Below are positions 50,966 to 57,272 of a DNA stretch of 64,000 bases, piece after piece. The notes under the pieces were generated by a model. That model was not told the origin of the DNA. It ran no database searches and saw nothing but the letters and a program-made list of their open reading frames with translations. The stretch is from Gemmatimonadales bacterium (lineage in GTDB: Bacteria; Gemmatimonadota; Gemmatimonadetes; Gemmatimonadales; GWC2-71-9): contig DATEGE010000147.1 in the NCBI GenBank assembly GCA_035280265.1, positions 7,135 through 71,134 on the forward strand, in the 5' to 3' direction. The position numbers and the translations under genes are program-made. The first letter of the stretch is position 1. Every line of letters begins with the position of its first letter.

Positions 50966-50978
50966 CGTCGTGCATTCG

Positions 50979-51029
50979 AAAAAAAATCCGCGTTTCCCTA
51001 TTGCGCATCGCTGCGGCGTTCCTTATTCT
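50979..51029 (+). promoter_or_regulatory. putative sigma-70-type promoter with an upstream A-tract for the ATP-grasp/GNAT/kamA operon
   Basis: It comprises an A8 tract (50979-86), TTGCGC (51001-06), a 17-nt spacer and TATTCT (51024-29). It is one of the few AT-rich islands in the window. Confidence 0.5.
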
Positions 51030-51056
51030 CTACTCCACACCTCGTTTCGATTCACA

Positions 51057-51079
51057 GACCGCACGAGCGGCCTTTTTTT
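51057..51079 (+). terminator. short hairpin plus T7 run in the operon leader (attenuator-like, or the thyX terminator)
   Basis: GACCGC-acga-GCGGCC is followed by TTTTTTT (51073-79). A T7 run is rare in this GC-rich sequence. Confidence 0.4.
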
Positions 51080-51100
51080 GTGGAGGTCACCCGAGACCAA

Positions 51101-52171
51101 ATGCGAATCGGTCTCGCATACAACGAAAAACCCGATCCCGCGTCCCACCGAGCAGCCGACACCACCAACGACGCGTTTGCCGAGTGGGACGACCCATCGA
51201 CCATCGCCGCGGTGGAGCAGGCTCTCGGTCTCTTCGGCACCGTCATCCGGCTCGAAGCCGACCAGTCGCTCCCACAAAAGCTCTCGCACACTCGTCCCGA
51301 TCTCGTCTTCAACATGGCGGAGGGCTTTCGCGGCCAGAGCCGTGAGGCGCTCGTCCCCGCGATCTGCGAGTACCTCAACGTCCCCTACACCGGCTCCGAC
51401 CCGCTGACCTTGGCGCTGTCGCTCCACAAGGGGCGCACCAAGGAGACCCTGGCGTTCCGCGGCGTGCCCACGGCGCCGTTCGCCTGCGCCGAAACGGTCG
51501 AGGACCTGGAGCGCGTGGCACTGCCGTTCCCGGTGTTCGTGAAGCCGGTGGCCGAAGGCTCCGGCAAGGGCGTGTTCACGAGCAATCTCTGCACCACGCC
51601 GCAGTCGCTGCGGGAGCGAGTCCGGTTCCTGCTGGGGCGGTACGCCGAGCCCGTGCTGATCGAGACCTACCTGCCGGGACAGGAGTTCACCGTCGCGATC
51701 CTCGGCAACGGGGCCGAGGCGTACGCCCTACCCGTGATCGGGTTCGATTTCTCGACGCTGCCCCCTGGAGCCCCGCCGGTCTACGGGTACGAGGCCAAGT
51801 GGGTGTGGGACCGCCCAGACGCGCCACTCGCCATCTTCCAGTGCCCGGCCCGCGTACCGACCGCGCTGTACCGCGAGGTCGAGCGCACCGCGTTGGACGC
51901 GTATCTCGCGCTCGGCTGCCGGGACTGGTGCCGCGTCGACCTGCGCGTGGATCGGTTCGGCGTCCCCAATATCCTCGAGCTGAACCCACTGCCCGGGATC
52001 ATCCCCGACCCGGCGATGAACTCGTGCTTCCCCAAGGCGGCTCGGGCCGCGGGCTTCAGCTACGACGAGCTGATTCAGGAAGTGGTGCGGATTGCGTGGC
52101 GGCGCCTCACGGGGCGGGATCTTTCCGTCGAAGCCGCCTCGCCAGTGCAGTTGGCGGCAACACGCGCGTGA
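51101..52171 (+). CDS. ATP-grasp ligase, D-alanine--D-alanine ligase-like (paralogue 1)
   Basis: ORF 51080..52171, likely starting at MRIGLAYNEK. Motifs are DLVFNMAEGF, GSDPLTLALSLHKGRTKE, FPVFVKPVAEGSGKGV, VLIETYLPGQEFTV and RVDLRVD...ILELNPLPG. Confidence 0.8.
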   Translation: MRIGLAYNEKPDPASHRAADTTNDAFAEWDDPSTIAAVEQALGLFGTVIRLEADQSLPQKLSHTRPDLVFNMAEGFRGQSREALVPAICEYLNVPYTGSDPLTLALSLHKGRTKETLAFRGVPTAPFACAETVEDLERVALPFPVFVKPVAEGSGKGVFTSNLCTTPQSLRERVRFLLGRYAEPVLIETYLPGQEFTVAILGNGAEAYALPVIGFDFSTLPPGAPPVYGYEAKWVWDRPDAPLAIFQCPARVPTALYREVERTALDAYLALGCRDWCRVDLRVDRFGVPNILELNPLPGIIPDPAMNSCFPKAARAAGFSYDELIQEVVRIAWRRLTGRDLSVEAASPVQLAATRA

Positions 52172-53187
52172 AAGTCGTCGTCCTGTACGACCCCGGAGCC
52201 GAGGACTGGACGCCCGAAGATATCCGCGGCGTCATGAAGGCCGTCGACGAGATCGCCGCCATCTTCGCCGCCATGGGCCACGAGGTCCGCCGGGTCCCCG
52301 TCCGCCACGACATGCGCTGGTTCCAGACCGCGCGCCGCGCCGATCTCGTGTTCAACCTGTGCGAAGGCGTGCACGGCAGGAGTGAGTGGGAGGAGCACGT
52401 CGTGGGAACGCTCGAGTTCGCAGGCATTCCCGTCACGGGAGCGAGCCTCTGGACGCTGGCGGCGTGCCGTCGCAAGCCGATCGCCAACGCGCTGCTGCAG
52501 CAGGCCGGGCTGCCCATCCCGCGCTGGACCCTGGCGCAGGGAAGGATCGAGGACGACTTCCCGTTACCCGCCATCGTCAAGCCGGCCGCCGAGGACGCGA
52601 GCGCGGGCCTCGACCGCGGCTCCGTCGTGAGCGACCGCAAGGCGCTGCGCGCCCGCGTCGCGGCGATGACGGAGCAGTTCGACGAGGTCCTCGTCCAGGA
52701 GTACGTGGGCGGCCGCGAGTTCAACGTCGGCTTCGTGGGCGGCCGCGCGCTCCCCGTGGCGGAGATCGACTTCAGTCGCATGCCCGAGGGCGCGTGGCCG
52801 ATCCTGACGTACGCGGGCAAGTGGGAGATCGGCTCGCCCGACGACCTGGGCTCCGTGCCCCAATGCCCCGCCGCCATCCCGCAGAAGGTCGCCGACCGGC
52901 TCATCCGCCTCGCCGAGCTCGCGTGGCGGGTGATGCAGGGGAAGGGATACGCGCGCGTCGACCTGCGGGTGGACGACCAGGGCCGGCCGTGGATCCTCGA
53001 GGTCAACCCCAACCCCGACCTGAACGACGACGCCGGCTTGTCCCGCATGGCTCGAGCCGCGGGGTGGGACTACGCCGAGCTGGTGCGGCGGATCGCCGAG
53101 GTGGCGCTCCGCGAAGCGCAGGGCGCCAAGGCGGCGCGTGAGCTGCTCGCTCCGTCCCGTCGGCCGCGCGCAACGCGCACGGCTTGA
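52168..53187 (+). CDS. ATP-grasp ligase, D-alanine--D-alanine ligase-like (paralogue 2)
   Basis: The GTG start overlaps the upstream TGA (GTGA). The sequence begins VKVVVLYDPG. Motifs are DLVFNLCEGV, LPAIVKPAAEDASAGL, VLVQEYVGGREFNV and RVDLRVDDQGRPWILEVNPNPD. Confidence 0.8.
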   Translation: MKVVVLYDPGAEDWTPEDIRGVMKAVDEIAAIFAAMGHEVRRVPVRHDMRWFQTARRADLVFNLCEGVHGRSEWEEHVVGTLEFAGIPVTGASLWTLAACRRKPIANALLQQAGLPIPRWTLAQGRIEDDFPLPAIVKPAAEDASAGLDRGSVVSDRKALRARVAAMTEQFDEVLVQEYVGGREFNVGFVGGRALPVAEIDFSRMPEGAWPILTYAGKWEIGSPDDLGSVPQCPAAIPQKVADRLIRLAELAWRVMQGKGYARVDLRVDDQGRPWILEVNPNPDLNDDAGLSRMARAAGWDYAELVRRIAEVALREAQGAKAARELLAPSRRPRATRTA

Positions 53188-53638
53188 GCGGCTCACGGCC
53201 GCCACCGACCTGTTCCGGTCGGAAGAGGTCGCGATCGCCGTGGAGCTGCTCGACGACGCCCTCGCCGGCGACGACGACTATCGGTTCCTCGGCGCGTTCC
53301 TGGGCGACGAGCTCGTGGGCTACGCCTGCTGGGGCCCCACGCCGGGCACGGTCGGGACCTTCGACCTCTACTGGATCGTCGTCGACCCGGCGCGCCAAGG
53401 CACGGGCGTGGGCACGCAGCTCCTCAAGGCGGTCGAGGATCAACTGACGACGGACGACGGACGATTGATTGTCGTCGAGACGTCATCCCGCGCACCGTAC
53501 GCGCCGACGCGCGCCTTCTACGAGCGACGCGGCTACGTCGAAGCCGCCCGGCTTCCCGGGTACTACGCCCCCGGCGACGACTTGGTGATCTACCTCAAGG
53601 ACCTGAAGCATGACGTACTGGCAAGAGCTACTGCGTAA
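53138..53638 (+). CDS. GNAT N-acetyltransferase
   Basis: GTG 53138 lies 50 nt inside the preceding ORF. Motifs are WIVVDPARQGTGVGTQLLKAVE (acetyl-CoA site) and FYERRGY. Confidence 0.8.
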   Translation: MSCSLRPVGRAQRARLERLTAATDLFRSEEVAIAVELLDDALAGDDDYRFLGAFLGDELVGYACWGPTPGTVGTFDLYWIVVDPARQGTGVGTQLLKAVEDQLTTDDGRLIVVETSSRAPYAPTRAFYERRGYVEAARLPGYYAPGDDLVIYLKDLKHDVLARATA

Positions 53639-54689
53639 GAAGAGCATCGCCTCGCTCGACGCGCTGGCCGCGAGGTTCGGACCGGAGCATTTCCCGGACC
53701 TGGACCGGCTGCGTCAGGCAGCGGAGAACTTCGAGTTCCGCATCTCCCCCGCCATGGTGGACCTCATCCAGGCGCCGGGCGACCCCATCTGGCGGCAGTA
53801 CGTGCCCGACCTCCAGGAGCTCGAGGTGCACGACGGCCTGGTGGACTCGCTCGCGGAAGACGCCAACTCCCCGGTGCCGAACATCACCCATCGCTACCCC
53901 GATCGGGCGCTCTTCCTCGTGTCGCCGGTCTGCGCTGCCTACTGCCGCTTCTGCACGCGCCGGCGCAAGGTGGCCGATCCCGAGAAAATTTCCCTGGCGG
54001 AGCTCGAGTCGGCGTTCCGCTACCTCGAGGAACACGTCGAGATCCGCGACGTCATCATGTCCGGGGGCGATCCGCTGCTCCTCTCCGACCGCCGGATCGA
54101 CGAGATCTGCCGGCGGCTGCGCGCCATCCCGCATATCGAGATCATCCGGATCGGGAGCCGCGTGCCCTGCCACCTGCCGGAGCGGATCACACCCGCGCTA
54201 TGCGCGATCCTCAAGCGCTACCATCCGATCTACATCAATACGCACTTCAACCACTCCCTCGAGCTCACCCCCGCCGCGGTGAAAGCCCTCGGCATGCTGG
54301 CCGACGCCGGCATTCCCCTCGGCTGCCAGACCGTGTTGTTGAAGGGTGTGAACGACGATCCCGAAGTCATGAAGCAGCTGATGCAGCGTCTGCTCGCGGC
54401 ACGCGTCCGGCCGTACTACATCTATATGTGTGATCAGGTGGCAGGCGCGGAGCATTTCCGCACGACCGTCGAGAAGGGCCTGGAGATCATTAGGGCGCTG
54501 CGCGGGTGGACCTCCGGGCTGGCCGTTCCCCATTTCGTGATCGACGCACCCGGGGGCGGAGGCAAGATTCCGCTCCTACCGGAGTACGTTGAGTCGATTA
54601 CCGACGACGCCGTCGTGCTCAAGAACTACGCGGGCAAACGCTATGTGTATCGACAGCCAGCCGCACACCGAGGAGTGCTCGTGGGCTGA
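53610..54689 (+). CDS. kamA: lysine 2,3-aminomutase family radical-SAM enzyme, short form (359 aa)
   Basis: Motifs are SPVPNITHRYPDRALFLVSPVCAAYCRFCTRR (CxxxCxxC), SGGDPL, YYIYMCDQVAGAEHFR and HFVIDAPGGGGKIPL. It ends about 40 aa after the GGGGK motif. Confidence 0.85.
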   Translation: MTYWQELLRKKSIASLDALAARFGPEHFPDLDRLRQAAENFEFRISPAMVDLIQAPGDPIWRQYVPDLQELEVHDGLVDSLAEDANSPVPNITHRYPDRALFLVSPVCAAYCRFCTRRRKVADPEKISLAELESAFRYLEEHVEIRDVIMSGGDPLLLSDRRIDEICRRLRAIPHIEIIRIGSRVPCHLPERITPALCAILKRYHPIYINTHFNHSLELTPAAVKALGMLADAGIPLGCQTVLLKGVNDDPEVMKQLMQRLLAARVRPYYIYMCDQVAGAEHFRTTVEKGLEIIRALRGWTSGLAVPHFVIDAPGGGGKIPLLPEYVESITDDAVVLKNYAGKRYVYRQPAAHRGVLVG

Positions 54690-54794: not shown

Positions 54795-57272
54795 ATGTTT
54801 CAGATGCCCCCAGCTTGCCAGGGTTCCATGGTTCACGGCTCGTGCTGCTCCTCGCGTATCGTCGCGTTTCTCCTTTCGACAACAACGCCAGTCGCCGCCG
54901 GGCAGCGATCGGACACGACCAACGCGGCCGCCGCGGCGCAGCTCGGGCGCGTCGCTGCCGAGCACTATGAGCCCGTCTTCGATGAGCTGCGCAAGATGGC
55001 GCTCAGTGGCGACTCCATCGCGCCCGTACACAACCTGACGCTACGACGCGACGCCATCGAATTCCACCTCGAAGACGGCAACCTATTCGTCGGGACTCCC
55101 GTCGCGGGGCGCACTATCGCGGCCGTTTTTGTGGGCCAGGGCTCCGTCTCGTTCGCGGCCCCGCTCGCCATTGAGCGAAAGGAGCTGCGGCGCCTGCTGG
55201 GCGACTCGACCGTCAACGCGCGGATCTCGGCCGTCGCCTTCGTGTTCACCGATTCCACGCTCAGCGAGCTCCGGCGGCAGCTGACCTTCGGGCCACGTCC
55301 CTCTGGAGCGGCAAGCCCGGGCCTCCTGGGCAACGCCATCGACCGATTCGTGGTCAACAATCGTTGGGTGTCGGAGCCGACCCTCATGGCGGCGCTGCTG
55401 AACGGCGAGACCAACGGATACTTCTACGCCCGCGTGAAGCGGGAGCACGGGGAGGATCTGACGCTGATCGTCGATCCGGTGGAGGCCGAGGCGATCGAGC
55501 TGCTGCGCGACGGTCGTGAGGGTGAGAAAGTGCAGCTCGTCTCCGAGTTCGGCAGCGCGCAGGACCTGGCGGATAGTACGGCTCGGGCCCGCGATCGGGC
55601 GCCGTTCGAGCTGGGCTCCTACCAGATCGACGCGACGATCGCCAAGGGTCTGGACTTCTCCGCGACTGCTGCCGTACGGCTCACCGCGCGGCGCGACGGC
55701 GTGCGCTGGATCCGCCTCGTCTTGCTTTCCGATCTGCGAGTCGACTCGTTGCGCGACGAGGGCTCAGCGGCGACGACGTTCTTCCGGGGCAACAAGAACC
55801 CGGAGTTGTGGGTCCGGTTCGACCCGGCGCTGCGACGTGGGGAGACACGCGCCGTTCGAGTCGTCTACCACGGCGACCTGATCGGGTACACCTCGGTCAC
55901 CGACGAGATGAGCCGCTGGCTCCCCATCATGGAGCGGTCGAAGCTCCCAGGGGCGCATGACAAATGGCTGTACGTCAAGTCGTCGTACGCGTGGTTTCCC
56001 CGCTACGGCGACCAGGCCGCGAACGTCGATCTGACCTTCCACGCCCCCAAGCGCTATCGCGTCGCGAGTATCGGGCAGCTCGTCGAGTCGCATCTCGATG
56101 GCGACGTCATGACGACCCGGTGGACCACCGTGCGACCCGCTAATCAGGTATGCTTCAGCCTGGGCGAGTTGGAAGAGTTCAAGATCAACGATCCACGCAT
56201 CCCGCCGGTGACCCTGCACACCAACAGCGACGCTCATCGTCAGCTGAACACGTTCTTCCTGGGCATGCAGTCACTCCTATCAGAGTACGGCTTTAACGAC
56301 CTTTCCTTCACGAAGCTGTTGTCGTCACGCGCGCCGGAGCAGGAGGTGGGCGCCGATGTCGCGAACAGCCTGGCGTTCTTCACGCGGGTCTACGGCCCAC
56401 CGTTGTTCGACCGCTACTATGCCGCCGAGATCCCGTTCTCGTATGGGCAGGCGTTCCCGGGGCTGATCTATCTGCCCGTGTGGACGTTTCAGACCCCCGC
56501 CGACAGTGGCTACGACGAGATCCTCCGGGCTCATGAGATGGCCCACCAGTGGTGGGGCATCGGTGTCGAGCCCGCCGGGTACCGGGATCACTGGCTGTCA
56601 GAAGGCTTCGCCGAGTTCTCGGGCTGGTGGTACATGCAGATCATCCTCCGGGACAACAAGAAGTTTTTCAAGCATCTCGACCACTGGCGCCGCGAGATCC
56701 GTTCCCGCCGCCGCGACGCGCCGCCGATCGGCATCGGCACGCGCGCCGCAGACCTGAACGAGCGCGATTATCGACTCATGACCTACTTCAAGGGGGCGTG
56801 GATCCTTCAGATGCTCCGGAATCTGATGCTCGATTTCCGCACCATGAATGAGGACGTGTTCGCGGCCATGATGGCGGACTTCTATCAGCAGTACCGGGGG
56901 AAGCACGCGACCACGCGGGACTTCCAGCGCGTCGTGGAGCGTCACCTCGACGCGCCGATGGACTGGTTCTTCGAACAGTGGGTCAACGGCACCGCGATAC
57001 CGACCTACATCTACTCCTGGCACGCCGACTCCACCGCGGACCACAAATTCGTGGTCCGCCTCCGGGTCCGCCAGGAAGACGTGCCCGACGACTTCATGAT
57101 GCTCGTTCCGGTACGCTTCGAACTCGCGGGCGGCGGACACGCCTTCGTGAGGGTGAGTGTGCACGGGCCACGCGCAGAGTTCCAATTCCGTCTCCCGGCG
57201 GAGCCGACGGAGGTGGAGCTCAATCCCCTCCAGTCGGTATTGGCAGAGGTAAAGACAGAAGATTGGGAGTGA
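54795..57272 (+). CDS. secreted M1 family metallopeptidase (aminopeptidase N-like)
   Basis: It carries HEMAHQWWG plus WLSEGFAEF (HExxH-x18-E). The signal-like region is MVHGSCCSSRIVAFLLSTTTPVAA, so the start is possibly ATG 54828. Confidence 0.85.
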   Translation: MFQMPPACQGSMVHGSCCSSRIVAFLLSTTTPVAAGQRSDTTNAAAAAQLGRVAAEHYEPVFDELRKMALSGDSIAPVHNLTLRRDAIEFHLEDGNLFVGTPVAGRTIAAVFVGQGSVSFAAPLAIERKELRRLLGDSTVNARISAVAFVFTDSTLSELRRQLTFGPRPSGAASPGLLGNAIDRFVVNNRWVSEPTLMAALLNGETNGYFYARVKREHGEDLTLIVDPVEAEAIELLRDGREGEKVQLVSEFGSAQDLADSTARARDRAPFELGSYQIDATIAKGLDFSATAAVRLTARRDGVRWIRLVLLSDLRVDSLRDEGSAATTFFRGNKNPELWVRFDPALRRGETRAVRVVYHGDLIGYTSVTDEMSRWLPIMERSKLPGAHDKWLYVKSSYAWFPRYGDQAANVDLTFHAPKRYRVASIGQLVESHLDGDVMTTRWTTVRPANQVCFSLGELEEFKINDPRIPPVTLHTNSDAHRQLNTFFLGMQSLLSEYGFNDLSFTKLLSSRAPEQEVGADVANSLAFFTRVYGPPLFDRYYAAEIPFSYGQAFPGLIYLPVWTFQTPADSGYDEILRAHEMAHQWWGIGVEPAGYRDHWLSEGFAEFSGWWYMQIILRDNKKFFKHLDHWRREIRSRRRDAPPIGIGTRAADLNERDYRLMTYFKGAWILQMLRNLMLDFRTMNEDVFAAMMADFYQQYRGKHATTRDFQRVVERHLDAPMDWFFEQWVNGTAIPTYIYSWHADSTADHKFVVRLRVRQEDVPDDFMMLVPVRFELAGGGHAFVRVSVHGPRAEFQFRLPAEPTEVELNPLQSVLAEVKTEDWE

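Follow-up and report, generated by a model that had tools for sequence, protein, structure and literature searches.

The four overlapping genes studied here encode two D-Ala-D-Ala-ligase-like (Ddl-like) ATP-grasp ligases (AG1 and AG2), a GNAT acyltransferase and a short KamA-family aminomutase. They are kept together in many phyla and probably constitute one biosynthetic module that makes beta-lysine and then consumes it, most likely building a beta-lysine compound that is still unidentified. This interpretation rests on the compact overlapping operon, the residue invariance among 67 homologues and the cross-phylum synteny, on Ddl catalytic residues combined with a changed pocket and sub-cut-off scores, on Rosetta-stone fusions (KamA::AG1 and AG1::AG2), and on the alternative KamA-family gene and the deacetylase fusions found in or near some clusters. 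A previous inspection without database searches (the sequence-only reading) had suggested that KamA, a GNAT and two paralogous ligases ligate beta-lysine. Our analysis supports that suggestion, although its chemical steps are all inferred and no biochemical or metabolite evidence exists. That reading knew of no characterised product for this four-gene set, and full-text literature searches did not retrieve one, nor any publication on the set.

Organization of the Gene Cluster and Its Leader

The analyzed DNA (the window) is a stretch of 64,000 nt from a Gemmatimonadales bacterium, located at positions 7,135-71,134 of the forward strand of DATEGE010000147.1 (GCA_035280265.1). The four co-directional genes occupy 51101-54689 (Table 1), and gene calling carried out independently on the same contig in the public record gave the same genes; the translational coupling that had been read from the letters was confirmed. 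Specifically, the GTG start of AG2 overlaps the AG1 stop TGA at 52169-71 (GTGA; sequence GCGCGTGAAAG), the GTG start of the GNAT lies 50 nt within AG2 and the ATG start of KamA lies 29 nt within the GNAT gene. GC3 is 86-92% across all four, which is a strong coding signal. For AG1, the start chosen by the gene caller is ATG 51101 and not GTG 51080; a GGAGG at 51082-86, with a 14-nt spacer to this ATG, is invariant in five relatives. The M1 aminopeptidase gene that follows had been placed 105 nt downstream (start 54795), but the gene caller gives 54828, which is 138 nt downstream. It is outside the conserved unit, being present there only in the two closest relatives.

Table 1. Features of the module and its leader (positions in the window).
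Feature	Position	Strand	Basis
Leader/intergenic region between thyX and AG1, conserved, AT-richer	50966..51100	+	Sequence, conservation in relatives
AG1, Ddl-like ATP-grasp ligase, 356 aa	51101..52171	+	Pfam, NCBIfam, residues, fold
AG2, second Ddl-like ATP-grasp ligase, 339 aa, AG1 paralogue	52168..53187	+	Pfam, NCBIfam, motif
GNAT acyl-CoA N-acyltransferase, 166 aa	53138..53638	+	Pfam, PDB 2R7H match
Short KamA-family radical-SAM/PLP aminomutase, 359 aa	53610..54689	+	Pfam, NCBIfam, 2A5H alignment

The leader of AG1 has a GC content of 52.6%, compared with 68.3% for the window. Each element previously pointed out in this AT-rich island was found: an A8 tract at 50979-86, TTGCGC at 51001-06 within a block (CTATTGCGCAT) at 50999-51009, TATTCT at 51024-29 after a 17-nt spacer, and a hairpin (GACCGC-loop-GCGGC) followed by T7 at 51057-79. 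A consensus promoter or terminator, however, was not detected by a consensus scan of the leader, the two hexamers matching 7/12 sigma-70 consensus positions. Additionally, an Rfam search of the leader returned no family and its fold is unexceptional (z = -1.3). The hexamer blocks, the hairpin stem with its T-run and the Shine-Dalgarno block are kept in five relatives (L002-L006), while the hairpin loop varies. Judging from this conservation the blocks are probably functional; a role as promoter or attenuator is an inference and remains unproven.

A Short Aminomutase of the Lysine Type

KamA harbors the Pfam domains Radical_SAM and LAM_C, and the only NCBIfam model it passes is that of the KamA subfamily (TIGR00238). 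It remains under the cut-offs of AblA (436 bits, cut-off 525), Glu-2,3-aminomutase (383 bits, cut-off 650) and EpmB (229 bits, cut-off 369). A HMMER alignment with the clostridial lysine 2,3-aminomutase (PDB 2A5H, E-value = 2e-105) places CAAYCRFC on Cys125/129/132 with Arg134 kept, YMCDQ on Asp293, and VIDAPGGGGK on Asp330 and Lys337. Both the cluster motif and the lysine-type Asp pair that had been recognized by inspection agree with this alignment. The radical-SAM cysteines, the PLP lysine, Arg134 and Asp293/Asp330 are invariant in 67/67 cluster-linked homologues. The C-terminal domain of the clostridial, Bacillus and AblA enzymes is absent, as had been noticed; the alignment stops at about residue 377 of the 416 of the 2A5H chain, and Cys268 is replaced. 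By its substrate residues the enzyme is predicted to be lysine-type, arginine or ornithine not being strictly excluded.

The Ddl-Like Ligases and the GNAT

AG1 and AG2 are 34% identical to each other. Both match the Dala_Dala_lig_C domain (E-value = 4e-30 and 4e-26, respectively), whereas no Dala_Dala_lig_N domain was recognized in either by the Pfam search. Against the NCBIfam Ddl subfamily they reach 165 and 135 bits (cut-off 243, the Ddl cut-offs being at least 243). Their likeness to Ddl/VanA ligases lies in the fold and in the catalytic and ATP-binding residues. The best 50 PDB fold matches of the AG1 model (AF2, pLDDT 89) are Ddl/VanA throughout; AG1 keeps the DdlB residues K97, K144, S150, E180, K215, R255, D257, E270, N272 and S281, and the catalytic motif R, D, E, N is present in AG2. 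Because fold and residues are identical in kind, the acyl-phosphate mechanism is presumably that of Ddl. AG1 also retains Ser308 and Arg278, whose Ddl equivalents bind the incoming amino acid by its carboxylate. Unlike Ddl, the AG ligases show pocket changes (DdlB Y216 to Trp and L282 to Cys, W234 and C309 in AG1), an omega-loop insertion and an insertion ahead of Ser281, and their genes share an operon with KamA and the GNAT instead of mur/fts genes. No cell-wall (mur/dcw) gene context was found around them. These scores, the missing N-domain and the absent cell-wall context speak against the pair being the canonical ddl/murein genes; on sequence grounds AG1 and AG2 are not canonical Ddl, though the Ddl fold and catalytic residues are kept.

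The GNAT matches Pfam Acetyltransf_1/7/10. RimI, its top NCBIfam match, reaches 43 bits (cut-off 86), and there is no AblB-type model among its NCBIfam matches; as classified by sequence, it is not of the AblB type. It matches PDB 2R7H (E-value = 1e-33), an orthologue with a solved structure and no assigned function, whose own gene neighbourhood is a KamA-AG1-AG2-GNAT cluster.

Synteny, Fusions and Variants of the Cluster

Synteny study showed that 65/80 related genome loci are colinear in the order AG1-AG2-GNAT-KamA. The colinear loci come from at least six phyla (Gemmatimonadota, Ignavibacteriota, Kryptonia, Acidobacteriota, Desulfuromonadales and KSB1), and Desulfovibrionales carry the same four genes in a permuted order behind a sigma-54 activator, so that the unit is indeed conserved across phyla. 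AG2 is established directly after AG1 in about 75 loci. The flanks vary by lineage, with thyX in Gemmatimonadota and recG/gpsA/plsY in Ignavibacteria, and the module has no exporter, carrier protein or target protein as a conserved neighbour. Natural fusions join KamA to AG1 (P0148, P0207, P0239 and P0219) and AG1 to AG2 (many proteins of 600-730 aa). Two Gemmatimonadota loci without the cluster-type KamA (L010, L007) have a different KamA-family gene in or near the cluster, while a fusion of a GNAT with a histone-deacetylase-family protein adjoins it in Desulfovibrio, Desulfuromonas, Woeseia and one other genome.

Two variants count against the beta-lysine module. Gemmatimonadaceae L015 and L025 have no GNAT between AG2 and KamA, and therefore acetylation could be unnecessary or depend on a gene at another site. 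In a Thermodesulfobacteriota clade, AG1-AG2-GNAT occur without any KamA within 8-10 kb. This leaves two options: the ligase pair does not strictly require beta-lysine, or these genomes encode KamA at another site. In seven loci of this type AG1-AG2-GNAT are located directly after PvlArgDC, in most cases together with SpeB and SpeY, a homologue of deoxyhypusine synthase, with intergenic gaps of 17-35 nt. PvlArgDC, SpeB and SpeY make up the agmatine-dependent homospermidine pathway (PMC13625781).

This neighbourhood, without KamA nearby, is an argument for a different product, which we consider unlikely: a polyamine-like conjugate, formed by AG1 and AG2 acylating a 1,4-diamine on its amino groups. 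In KamA clusters this diamine would be beta-lysine, and in the KamA-less clade it would be agmatine, putrescine or homospermidine, while the GNAT and the deacetylase would have the roles that such enzymes have in the acetylation and deacetylation of polyamines. In chemical terms beta-lysine is a 1,4-diamine, namely putrescine plus a carboxymethyl group, and glutathionylspermidine synthetase is an ATP-grasp precedent. The accessory gene found elsewhere belongs to the histone-deacetylase/acetylpolyamine-amidohydrolase family, and systematic differences between the AG1 proteins of the two cluster types are limited to three conserved positions, one of them being D100 to S/A/N/G. Glutathionylspermidine/trypanothione synthetase together with SpeG/APAH offers a parallel, with an ATP-grasp amide on a diamine or polyamine nitrogen and acetylation controlled by a GNAT and an HDAC-family enzyme, matching the deacetylase accessory genes and the homospermidine-linked variant. 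However, no sequence relationship with these synthetases was shown past the superfamily level, and the polyamine link is the gene neighbourhood of one clade (PvlArgDC 73-88% identical), conserved no better than the obviously unrelated thyX, recG and pyrKD adjacencies. Moreover, the conserved residues of AG1, AG2 and the GNAT are nearly all alike in both cluster types, which fits one substrate with KamA elsewhere, and the carboxylate-holding pair of AG1 also speaks against such a conjugate.

Proposed Pathway and Comparison with Known Systems

In the proposed beta-lysine pathway, KamA would convert L-lysine to beta-lysine (3,6-diaminohexanoate) through radical-SAM/PLP chemistry and AG1 would act directly with it. 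AG1 and AG2 would form one amide bond apiece via an acyl-phosphate, in the manner of D-Ala-D-Ala ligase, coupling beta-lysine to one or two carboxylate/amine partners, most likely amino acids. The GNAT would N-acylate a free amino group, whether on the substrate, on an intermediate or on the final product; in clusters that have the GNAT-deacetylase fusion, the acetyl may serve for protection or regulation and be taken off again. We would expect the product to be a small (pseudo)peptide of beta-lysine, cytoplasmic, amide-linked and probably N-acetylated. While gene content, catalytic residues, the lysine-type pocket, synteny and fusions are observed directly, the order of the steps, the identity of the partners and the very occurrence of acetylation are inferred.

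A precedent exists in pyrrolysine biosynthesis (PylB/PylC/PylD), where a radical-SAM mutase (PylB) isomerises lysine and a Ddl-like ligase (PylC) links the isomer to an amine. PylB, however, is not a KamA-type PLP aminomutase, AG1 gave no specific PylC match against PDB chains (its nearest relatives being Ddl/VanA), and the module lacks a PylD-like dehydrogenase while having two ligases and a GNAT. Similarly, a GNAT and an ATP-grasp enzyme yield small N-acetylated peptides, acting as solutes or signals, in Ngg (N-acetylglutaminylglutamine amide synthesis) and with the NAAG synthetases RIMKLA/B, but those ligases are RimK-type instead of Ddl-type and neither a beta-amino acid nor a radical-SAM enzyme is used.

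The EpmA/EpmB/EpmC system of EF-P also employs a C-terminally short KamA-family enzyme to make beta-lysine and afterwards attaches this to an amine through an amide bond. It is improbable that the module likewise serves post-translational beta-lysylation of EF-P or another protein, with KamA as EpmB and an ATP-grasp ligase replacing the lysyl-tRNA-synthetase paralogue EpmA. The truncated KamA, the weak resemblance of the GNAT to protein N-terminal acetyltransferases (RimI, Naa30, archaeal Nat) and the high conservation of the module proteins (KamA 85-92% identical within Gemmatimonadales) would suit it, and ATP-grasp enzymes such as RimK do modify proteins. Nevertheless, the module has no EpmA-type ligase, no efp gene was found within the window or any of 81 loci, the EpmB score is under its cut-off with AblA nearer, no candidate target gene is conserved alongside, and the known relatives of Ddl-type ligases join small molecules.

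Finally, the N-epsilon-acetyl-beta-lysine pathway (AblA/AblB in methanogens, KamA/YodP in Bacillus) places a KamA-family lysine 2,3-aminomutase beside a GNAT, and its lysine-binding Asp pair, PLP lysine and radical-SAM cluster are kept in the module. The module differs in an aminomutase that is under the AblA equivalog cut-off and C-terminally short, in a GNAT that is not AblB-like, and in two ATP-grasp ligases as obligatory partners, one of them found fused to KamA. That the ligases are cell-wall D-Ala-D-X enzymes merely neighbouring KamA and the GNAT is very improbable: such a pair follows the ablAB or kamA-yodP pattern (PMC2821294; PMC3543383) and AblA is the top NCBIfam match of KamA, but the missed AblA cut-off, a GNAT matched by no AblB-type model, ligases far under the Ddl cut-offs and outside a mur/dcw context, both kinds of fusion, the four-gene synteny across phyla, and hosts that by their record titles are soil, groundwater and freshwater lineages, not halophiles, all contradict it.

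Operon Organization and Upstream Region

Gene prediction led to four co-directional ORFs, encoding two paralogous Ddl-like ATP-grasp ligases (AG1 and AG2), a GNAT acetyltransferase and a C-terminally short protein of the lysine 2,3-aminomutase family (KamA), and a separate gene call on the public record agrees with the listing of ORFs. The overlaps reported by the sequence-only reading are present as described, namely GTGA between AG1 and AG2, 50 nt between AG2 and GNAT and 29 nt between GNAT and KamA. Its start for AG1 (GTG 51080) is less convincing; ATG 51101 is likelier, as it lies 14 nt after an invariant GGAGG. GC3 is 86-92% across the four genes. The neighbors of the operon in the window are thyX and an M1 peptidase, and none of them is a mur or fts gene.

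The island upstream of AG1 has a GC content of 52.6%, against 68.3% for the window. It carries the A8 tract, the TTGCGC-17-TATTCT element and the small hairpin followed by T7 that had been noticed by eye. A consensus scan of this leader, which is the thyX-AG1 intergenic region, called neither a sigma-70 promoter nor an intrinsic terminator, and its fold was not significant (z = -1.3). Rfam matched no riboswitch and no other RNA family in the whole window, so a known lysine riboswitch can be ruled out for the leader. In five Gemmatimonadales relatives (L002-L006, AG1 73-89% identical) it is conserved as a series of blocks, with a variable hairpin loop. The blocks comprise CTATTGCGCAT, TATT(C/G)TCT, a hairpin of the form GACCGC-loop-GCGGC with T6-8 after it, and GGAGGTCACCCGAGACCACATG. 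They are probable regulatory elements of unassigned role, and the leader might act as a terminator of thyX, as an attenuator or as the binding site of a regulator.

Coordinates of the module and of related features in the window and in compared loci (L numbers)
Feature	Sequence	Position	Strand	Length	Remark
Conserved leader	window	50999-51086			
AG1	window	51101-52171	+	356 aa	ORF listing, public gene call
AG2	window	52168-53187	+	339 aa	ORF listing, public gene call
GNAT	window	53138-53638	+	166 aa	ORF listing, public gene call
KamA	window	53610-54689	+	359 aa	ORF listing, public gene call
M1-family peptidase	window	54828-57272			Peptidase_M1 (Pfam) only at residues 579-729 of an 825-aa ORF, C-terminal third
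Split KamA	L030	12820-13864			Two adjacent tblastn segments
Split KamA	L033	12522-13546			Two adjacent tblastn segments
Divergent KamA-family protein	L010	12700-14088		462 aa	In KamA position, 29% identical to window KamA
Partial divergent KamA-family copy	L007	16825-17040			Contig end, ~8 kb downstream of GNAT
Sigma-54-dependent activator	L090	2874-4310			
Sigma-54-dependent activator	L082	2857-4293			
GNAT-HDAC fusion	L082	8629-10386			
GNAT-HDAC fusion	L084	6268-8004			
GNAT-HDAC fusion	L083	6505-8001			
GNAT-HDAC fusion	L072	7963-9690	-		
SpeY/SpeB/PvlArgDC	L061	7395-9984			Upstream of AG1; also L077, L048, L069, L085-L087
Extra ORF	L087	7057-7983		308 aa	Between PvlArgDC and AG1
Homologue of L087 ORF	L081	1452-2357			46% identical, KSB1 MAG, 8 kb upstream of cluster

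ATP-Grasp Ligases

Profile classification shows that these ligases are not canonical Ddl enzymes. Both AG1 (165 and 126 bits) and AG2 (135 and 118 bits) fall below the Ddl cut-offs of NCBIfam NF002378 (243 bits) and TIGR01205 (246 bits). Pfam detects only the C-terminal Dala_Dala_lig_C in either protein and not Dala_Dala_lig_N, which is half of the two-part Ddl architecture. AG1 and AG2 are 34% identical to each other. Aligned with E. coli DdlB, AG1 keeps K97, K144, S150, E180, K215, R255, D257, E270, N272, G276 and S281, but Tyr216 and Leu282 of the D-Ala site are replaced by W234 and C309, and there are insertions. The AG2 alignment shows the catalytic R, D, E and N residues. The top 50 PDB matches of the AG1 AlphaFold model (pLDDT 89) are all Ddl/VanA (TM 0.65-0.84); the fold superposes overall on Ddl despite the undetected N-terminal domain. 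As the Ddl residues and fold are retained and the pocket residues are changed, both proteins are, judging from alignment and model and without biochemical data, catalytically competent Ddl-type ligases with an altered substrate pocket. AG1 also keeps R278 and S308, the Ddl positions that bind the carboxylate of the incoming amino acid, which suggests that the nucleophile of the putative ligase is still an amino acid.

The role of a canonical D-alanine-D-alanine ligase was rejected for AG1 and AG2 on the sub-cut-off scores, the lack of the N domain, the changed Tyr216 and Leu282 and the absence of mur/dcw context. No further Ddl-like gene was found elsewhere in the 64 kb window. Among longer AG1 homologues, Pfam finds in the N-terminal extensions only more or degenerate ATP-grasp signal and no informative extra domain. 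Public sources label these ligases 'D-alanine-D-alanine ligase', and their homologues are at present mis-annotated as Ddl in genomes.

Aminomutase and Acetyltransferase

KamA aligns with clostridial lysine 2,3-aminomutase (PDB 2A5H, E = 2e-105) and keeps the three cluster cysteines (CxxxCxxC), Arg134, Asp293, Asp330 and the PLP-binding Lys337, all of which are invariant in 67 of 67 cluster-linked KamA sequences. Asp293 and Asp330 bind the epsilon-ammonium group of lysine and are substituted in glutamate 2,3-aminomutase; the lysine-type pair that had been proposed by eye thus holds in the alignment with 2A5H. The proposed loss of the C-terminal domain, in which Zn-site cysteines are expected, holds as well and includes the CxCxxC region, and Cys268 is also replaced. 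KamA passes only the broad KamA subfamily model (285 bits, cut-off 199), scoring 436 bits against the 525 required for the AblA equivalog, with the match ending at model position 365 of 417, and 322 against 600 for the arginine aminomutase model. The cluster KamAs of Desulfovibrio, Desulfuromonas, Ignavibacterium album and locus L084 are likewise below the AblA threshold, with matches ending at about position 365. The window KamA has an identical counterpart on an ENA metagenome contig, and Gemmatimonadales MAG proteins are 85-92% identical to it, which marks the high-GC window as part of a Gemmatimonadales genome. Assignment as glutamate 2,3-aminomutase was rejected (383 bits against 650, with the Asp pair retained).

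Some loci depart from this pattern. KamA is split in L030 and L033, indicating a frameshift (pseudogene or assembly error). In two Gemmatimonadota loci, L010 and L007, the usual KamA is missing and a divergent KamA-family gene lies nearby. The L010 protein bears the motifs CPQYCGHC and ...CDVPFVGK, corresponding to CxxxCxxC and the PLP-lysine motif; oddly, a Pfam scan of this ORF finds no family, and the motifs were trusted over the empty scan.

Concerning the GNAT, no AblB-type model matched, and assignment as an AblB/YodP beta-lysine N-acetyltransferase was rejected on that ground. Its NCBIfam hits are only RimI (the top match), PRK03624 and ArsN2, all below cut-off, and public sources call it 'RimI-like'. 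None of the four proteins has a specific NCBIfam model. The closest solved protein to the GNAT is its orthologue 2R7H (E = 1e-33), a structural-genomics entry titled 'putative D-alanine N-acetyltransferase' with no assigned function. Homologues of 2R7H lie in KamA-AG1-AG2-GNAT clusters of Desulfovibrio mangrovi and of a G20-type Oleidesulfovibrio contig, the GNAT of the latter being 99% identical to 2R7H. In two Gemmatimonadaceae MAGs (L015 and L025), KamA starts ~120-185 nt after AG2 with no GNAT match in the gap. Certain lineages may do without the GNAT or carry its gene at another place in the genome.

Conservation, Boundaries and Gene Fusions

One genome per species was scanned with a 12-sequence AG1 alignment from a representative-protein search. 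The four genes had been proposed as a self-contained operon, and the survey recovered AG1-AG2-GNAT-KamA colinear in 65 of the 80 best loci, a further five being cut by contig ends. According to record titles, colinear loci belong to Gemmatimonadota, Ignavibacteriota (including I. album, Melioribacter and the isolate Stygiobacter electus), Bacteroidota-labelled MAGs, Candidatus Kryptonia, Acidobacteriota, Desulfuromonadales and KSB1, while in an Auribacterota locus (L044), which also has the four genes, AG2 is separated from the others. When all flanking ORFs were clustered, no other gene beside the module proved to be shared across phyla. The thyX gene precedes it only in Gemmatimonadota, recG-gpsA-plsY only in Ignavibacteria, and the M1 peptidase follows it only in the two closest relatives. 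The M1 aminopeptidase, thyX and an FAD oxidase were rejected as members of the module, their synteny being lineage-specific only. The M1 peptidase of the window scores far under the aminopeptidase N and LTA4-hydrolase cut-offs. Locus L017, labelled Bacillota, has the Gemmatimonadota-type thyX-AG1-AG2-GNAT-KamA order (ThyX 76% and KamA 80% identical to those of the window), and L060, labelled Syntrophomonadaceae, has the recG-linked Ignavibacteria layout; both labels may reflect mis-binning.

Fused forms also occur. AG1::AG2 fusions of 600-730 aa are numerous among the 50%-identity representatives, and four proteins join KamA and AG1, three as KamA-AG1 (P0148, verified by Pfam, P0207 and P0239) and one as AG1-KamA (P0219). 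A ~580-aa fusion of a GNAT-like N-terminus with a histone-deacetylase/acetylpolyamine-amidohydrolase-family domain (GNAT-HDAC), for which NCBIfam has no matching model, adjoins the cluster in D. mangrovi, a Woeseia MAG, L084 and a Desulfuromonas MAG, in the last of which it is divergently oriented.

Proposed Pathway and Alternatives

We hold it rather probable that the module is a small-molecule beta-lysine pathway, although its chemistry is inferred and no biochemical evidence exists. Beta-lysine would be produced by KamA, presumably from L-lysine; AG1, the fusion partner of KamA, and AG2 would then each catalyze the formation of a single amide bond by way of an acyl-phosphate, and the GNAT would N-acylate an amino group; in some phyla the deacetylase fusion might remove the acetyl group. 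The closest functional precedents are PylB/PylC, Ngg and NAAG synthetase. In PylB/PylC a radical-SAM lysine mutase is followed by a Ddl-like ligase, in parallel with KamA and AG1/AG2. AG1 was rejected as a PylC-type pyrrolysine ligase; in the best 60 of 72 PDB matches of its profile (up to E = 1) PylC does not appear, and the strong matches are all Ddl/VanA.

A polyamine or diamine conjugate as the product is unlikely but survives best among the alternatives. In seven Thermodesulfobacteriota-type loci the gene order is SpeY(DS)-SpeB-PvlArgDC-AG1-AG2-GNAT-methyltransferase-GNAT2-pyrKD, and KamA is lacking within 8-10 kb. SpeY belongs to the deoxyhypusine-synthase family and PvlArgDC is a pyruvoyl arginine decarboxylase; the SpeY-SpeB-PvlArgDC trio is an agmatine-dependent homospermidine pathway (PMC13625781), so that the ligases and GNAT directly follow homospermidine genes. 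However, this adjacency is confined to one clade and lies beside the clearly unrelated pyrKD, and we therefore rank the polyamine link as a lead and not a finding. Three conserved AG1 positions (D100, C273 and Y321) differ systematically between KamA-linked and KamA-less forms, too few for substrate assignment, which was rejected. The extra ORF in L087 has an ATP-grasp-like glycine-rich motif, FIIKPAHGGGGVGV, and no Pfam family on record; a homologue was found in L081.

By our own inference, beta-lysine shares the 1,4-diamine spacing of putrescine, so a common 'diamine acylation' logic is conceivable. We tentatively put forward, as a possibility only, that the dedicated four-enzyme module makes an unrecognized beta-lysine metabolite, namely a beta-lysyl pseudopeptide, N-acetylated and serving as a stand-in for polyamines, as a solute or as the precursor of a cofactor, in Gemmatimonadota, Ignavibacteriota, Kryptonia, Acidobacteriota, Desulfobacterota, KSB1 and some Gammaproteobacteria, and that the ligase-GNAT core is re-used in a sister clade on 1,4-diamines of agmatine, putrescine or homospermidine type.

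Beta-lysylation of a protein or of EF-P is more doubtful still: the ligases are Ddl-type, KamA scores low against EpmB (229 bits, cut-off 369), and tblastn with E. coli EF-P matched no efp in either the window or the 81 loci searched. Assignment of KamA as EpmB was rejected on the same score and absence. That KamA and the GNAT form a plain AblAB-like osmolyte pair, with the ligases unrelated, is hardly credible, since both the fusions and the synteny contradict it.

Novelty and Significance

The sequence-only reading knew of no characterized product for this gene set, and full-text searches of a literature collection without most subscription-journal papers turned up nothing on it. The enzymes are of known kinds (beta-lysine pathways and Ddl-type ligases), and there is a real chance of a new metabolite. 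In bacteria beta-lysine serves as osmolyte precursor, fermentation intermediate, antibiotic building block and EF-P modifier; to our knowledge, its uses are few. If correct, the beta-lysine pathway proposed here would amount to a fourth or fifth use, by Ddl-like ligases, and would bring one more primary or stress metabolite to light; it would also set apart a new functional clade among 'D-Ala-D-Ala ligase' homologues and provide a function for the orphan structure 2R7H. Should the 1,4-diamine extension also be true, Ddl-like ligases that conjugate diamines would constitute a new family. The module is conserved in phyla that have been little studied, although they are abundant in the environment. 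Organisms that are in culture and accessible to genetics (Oleidesulfovibrio alaskensis G20-type strains, D. mangrovi, I. album and S. electus) carry the same cluster, so the question is directly testable. In Desulfovibrionales a gene for a sigma-54-dependent activator lies immediately upstream of KamA-AG1-AG2-GNAT (L090 and L082), which suggests that the cluster is under enhancer-dependent regulation there.
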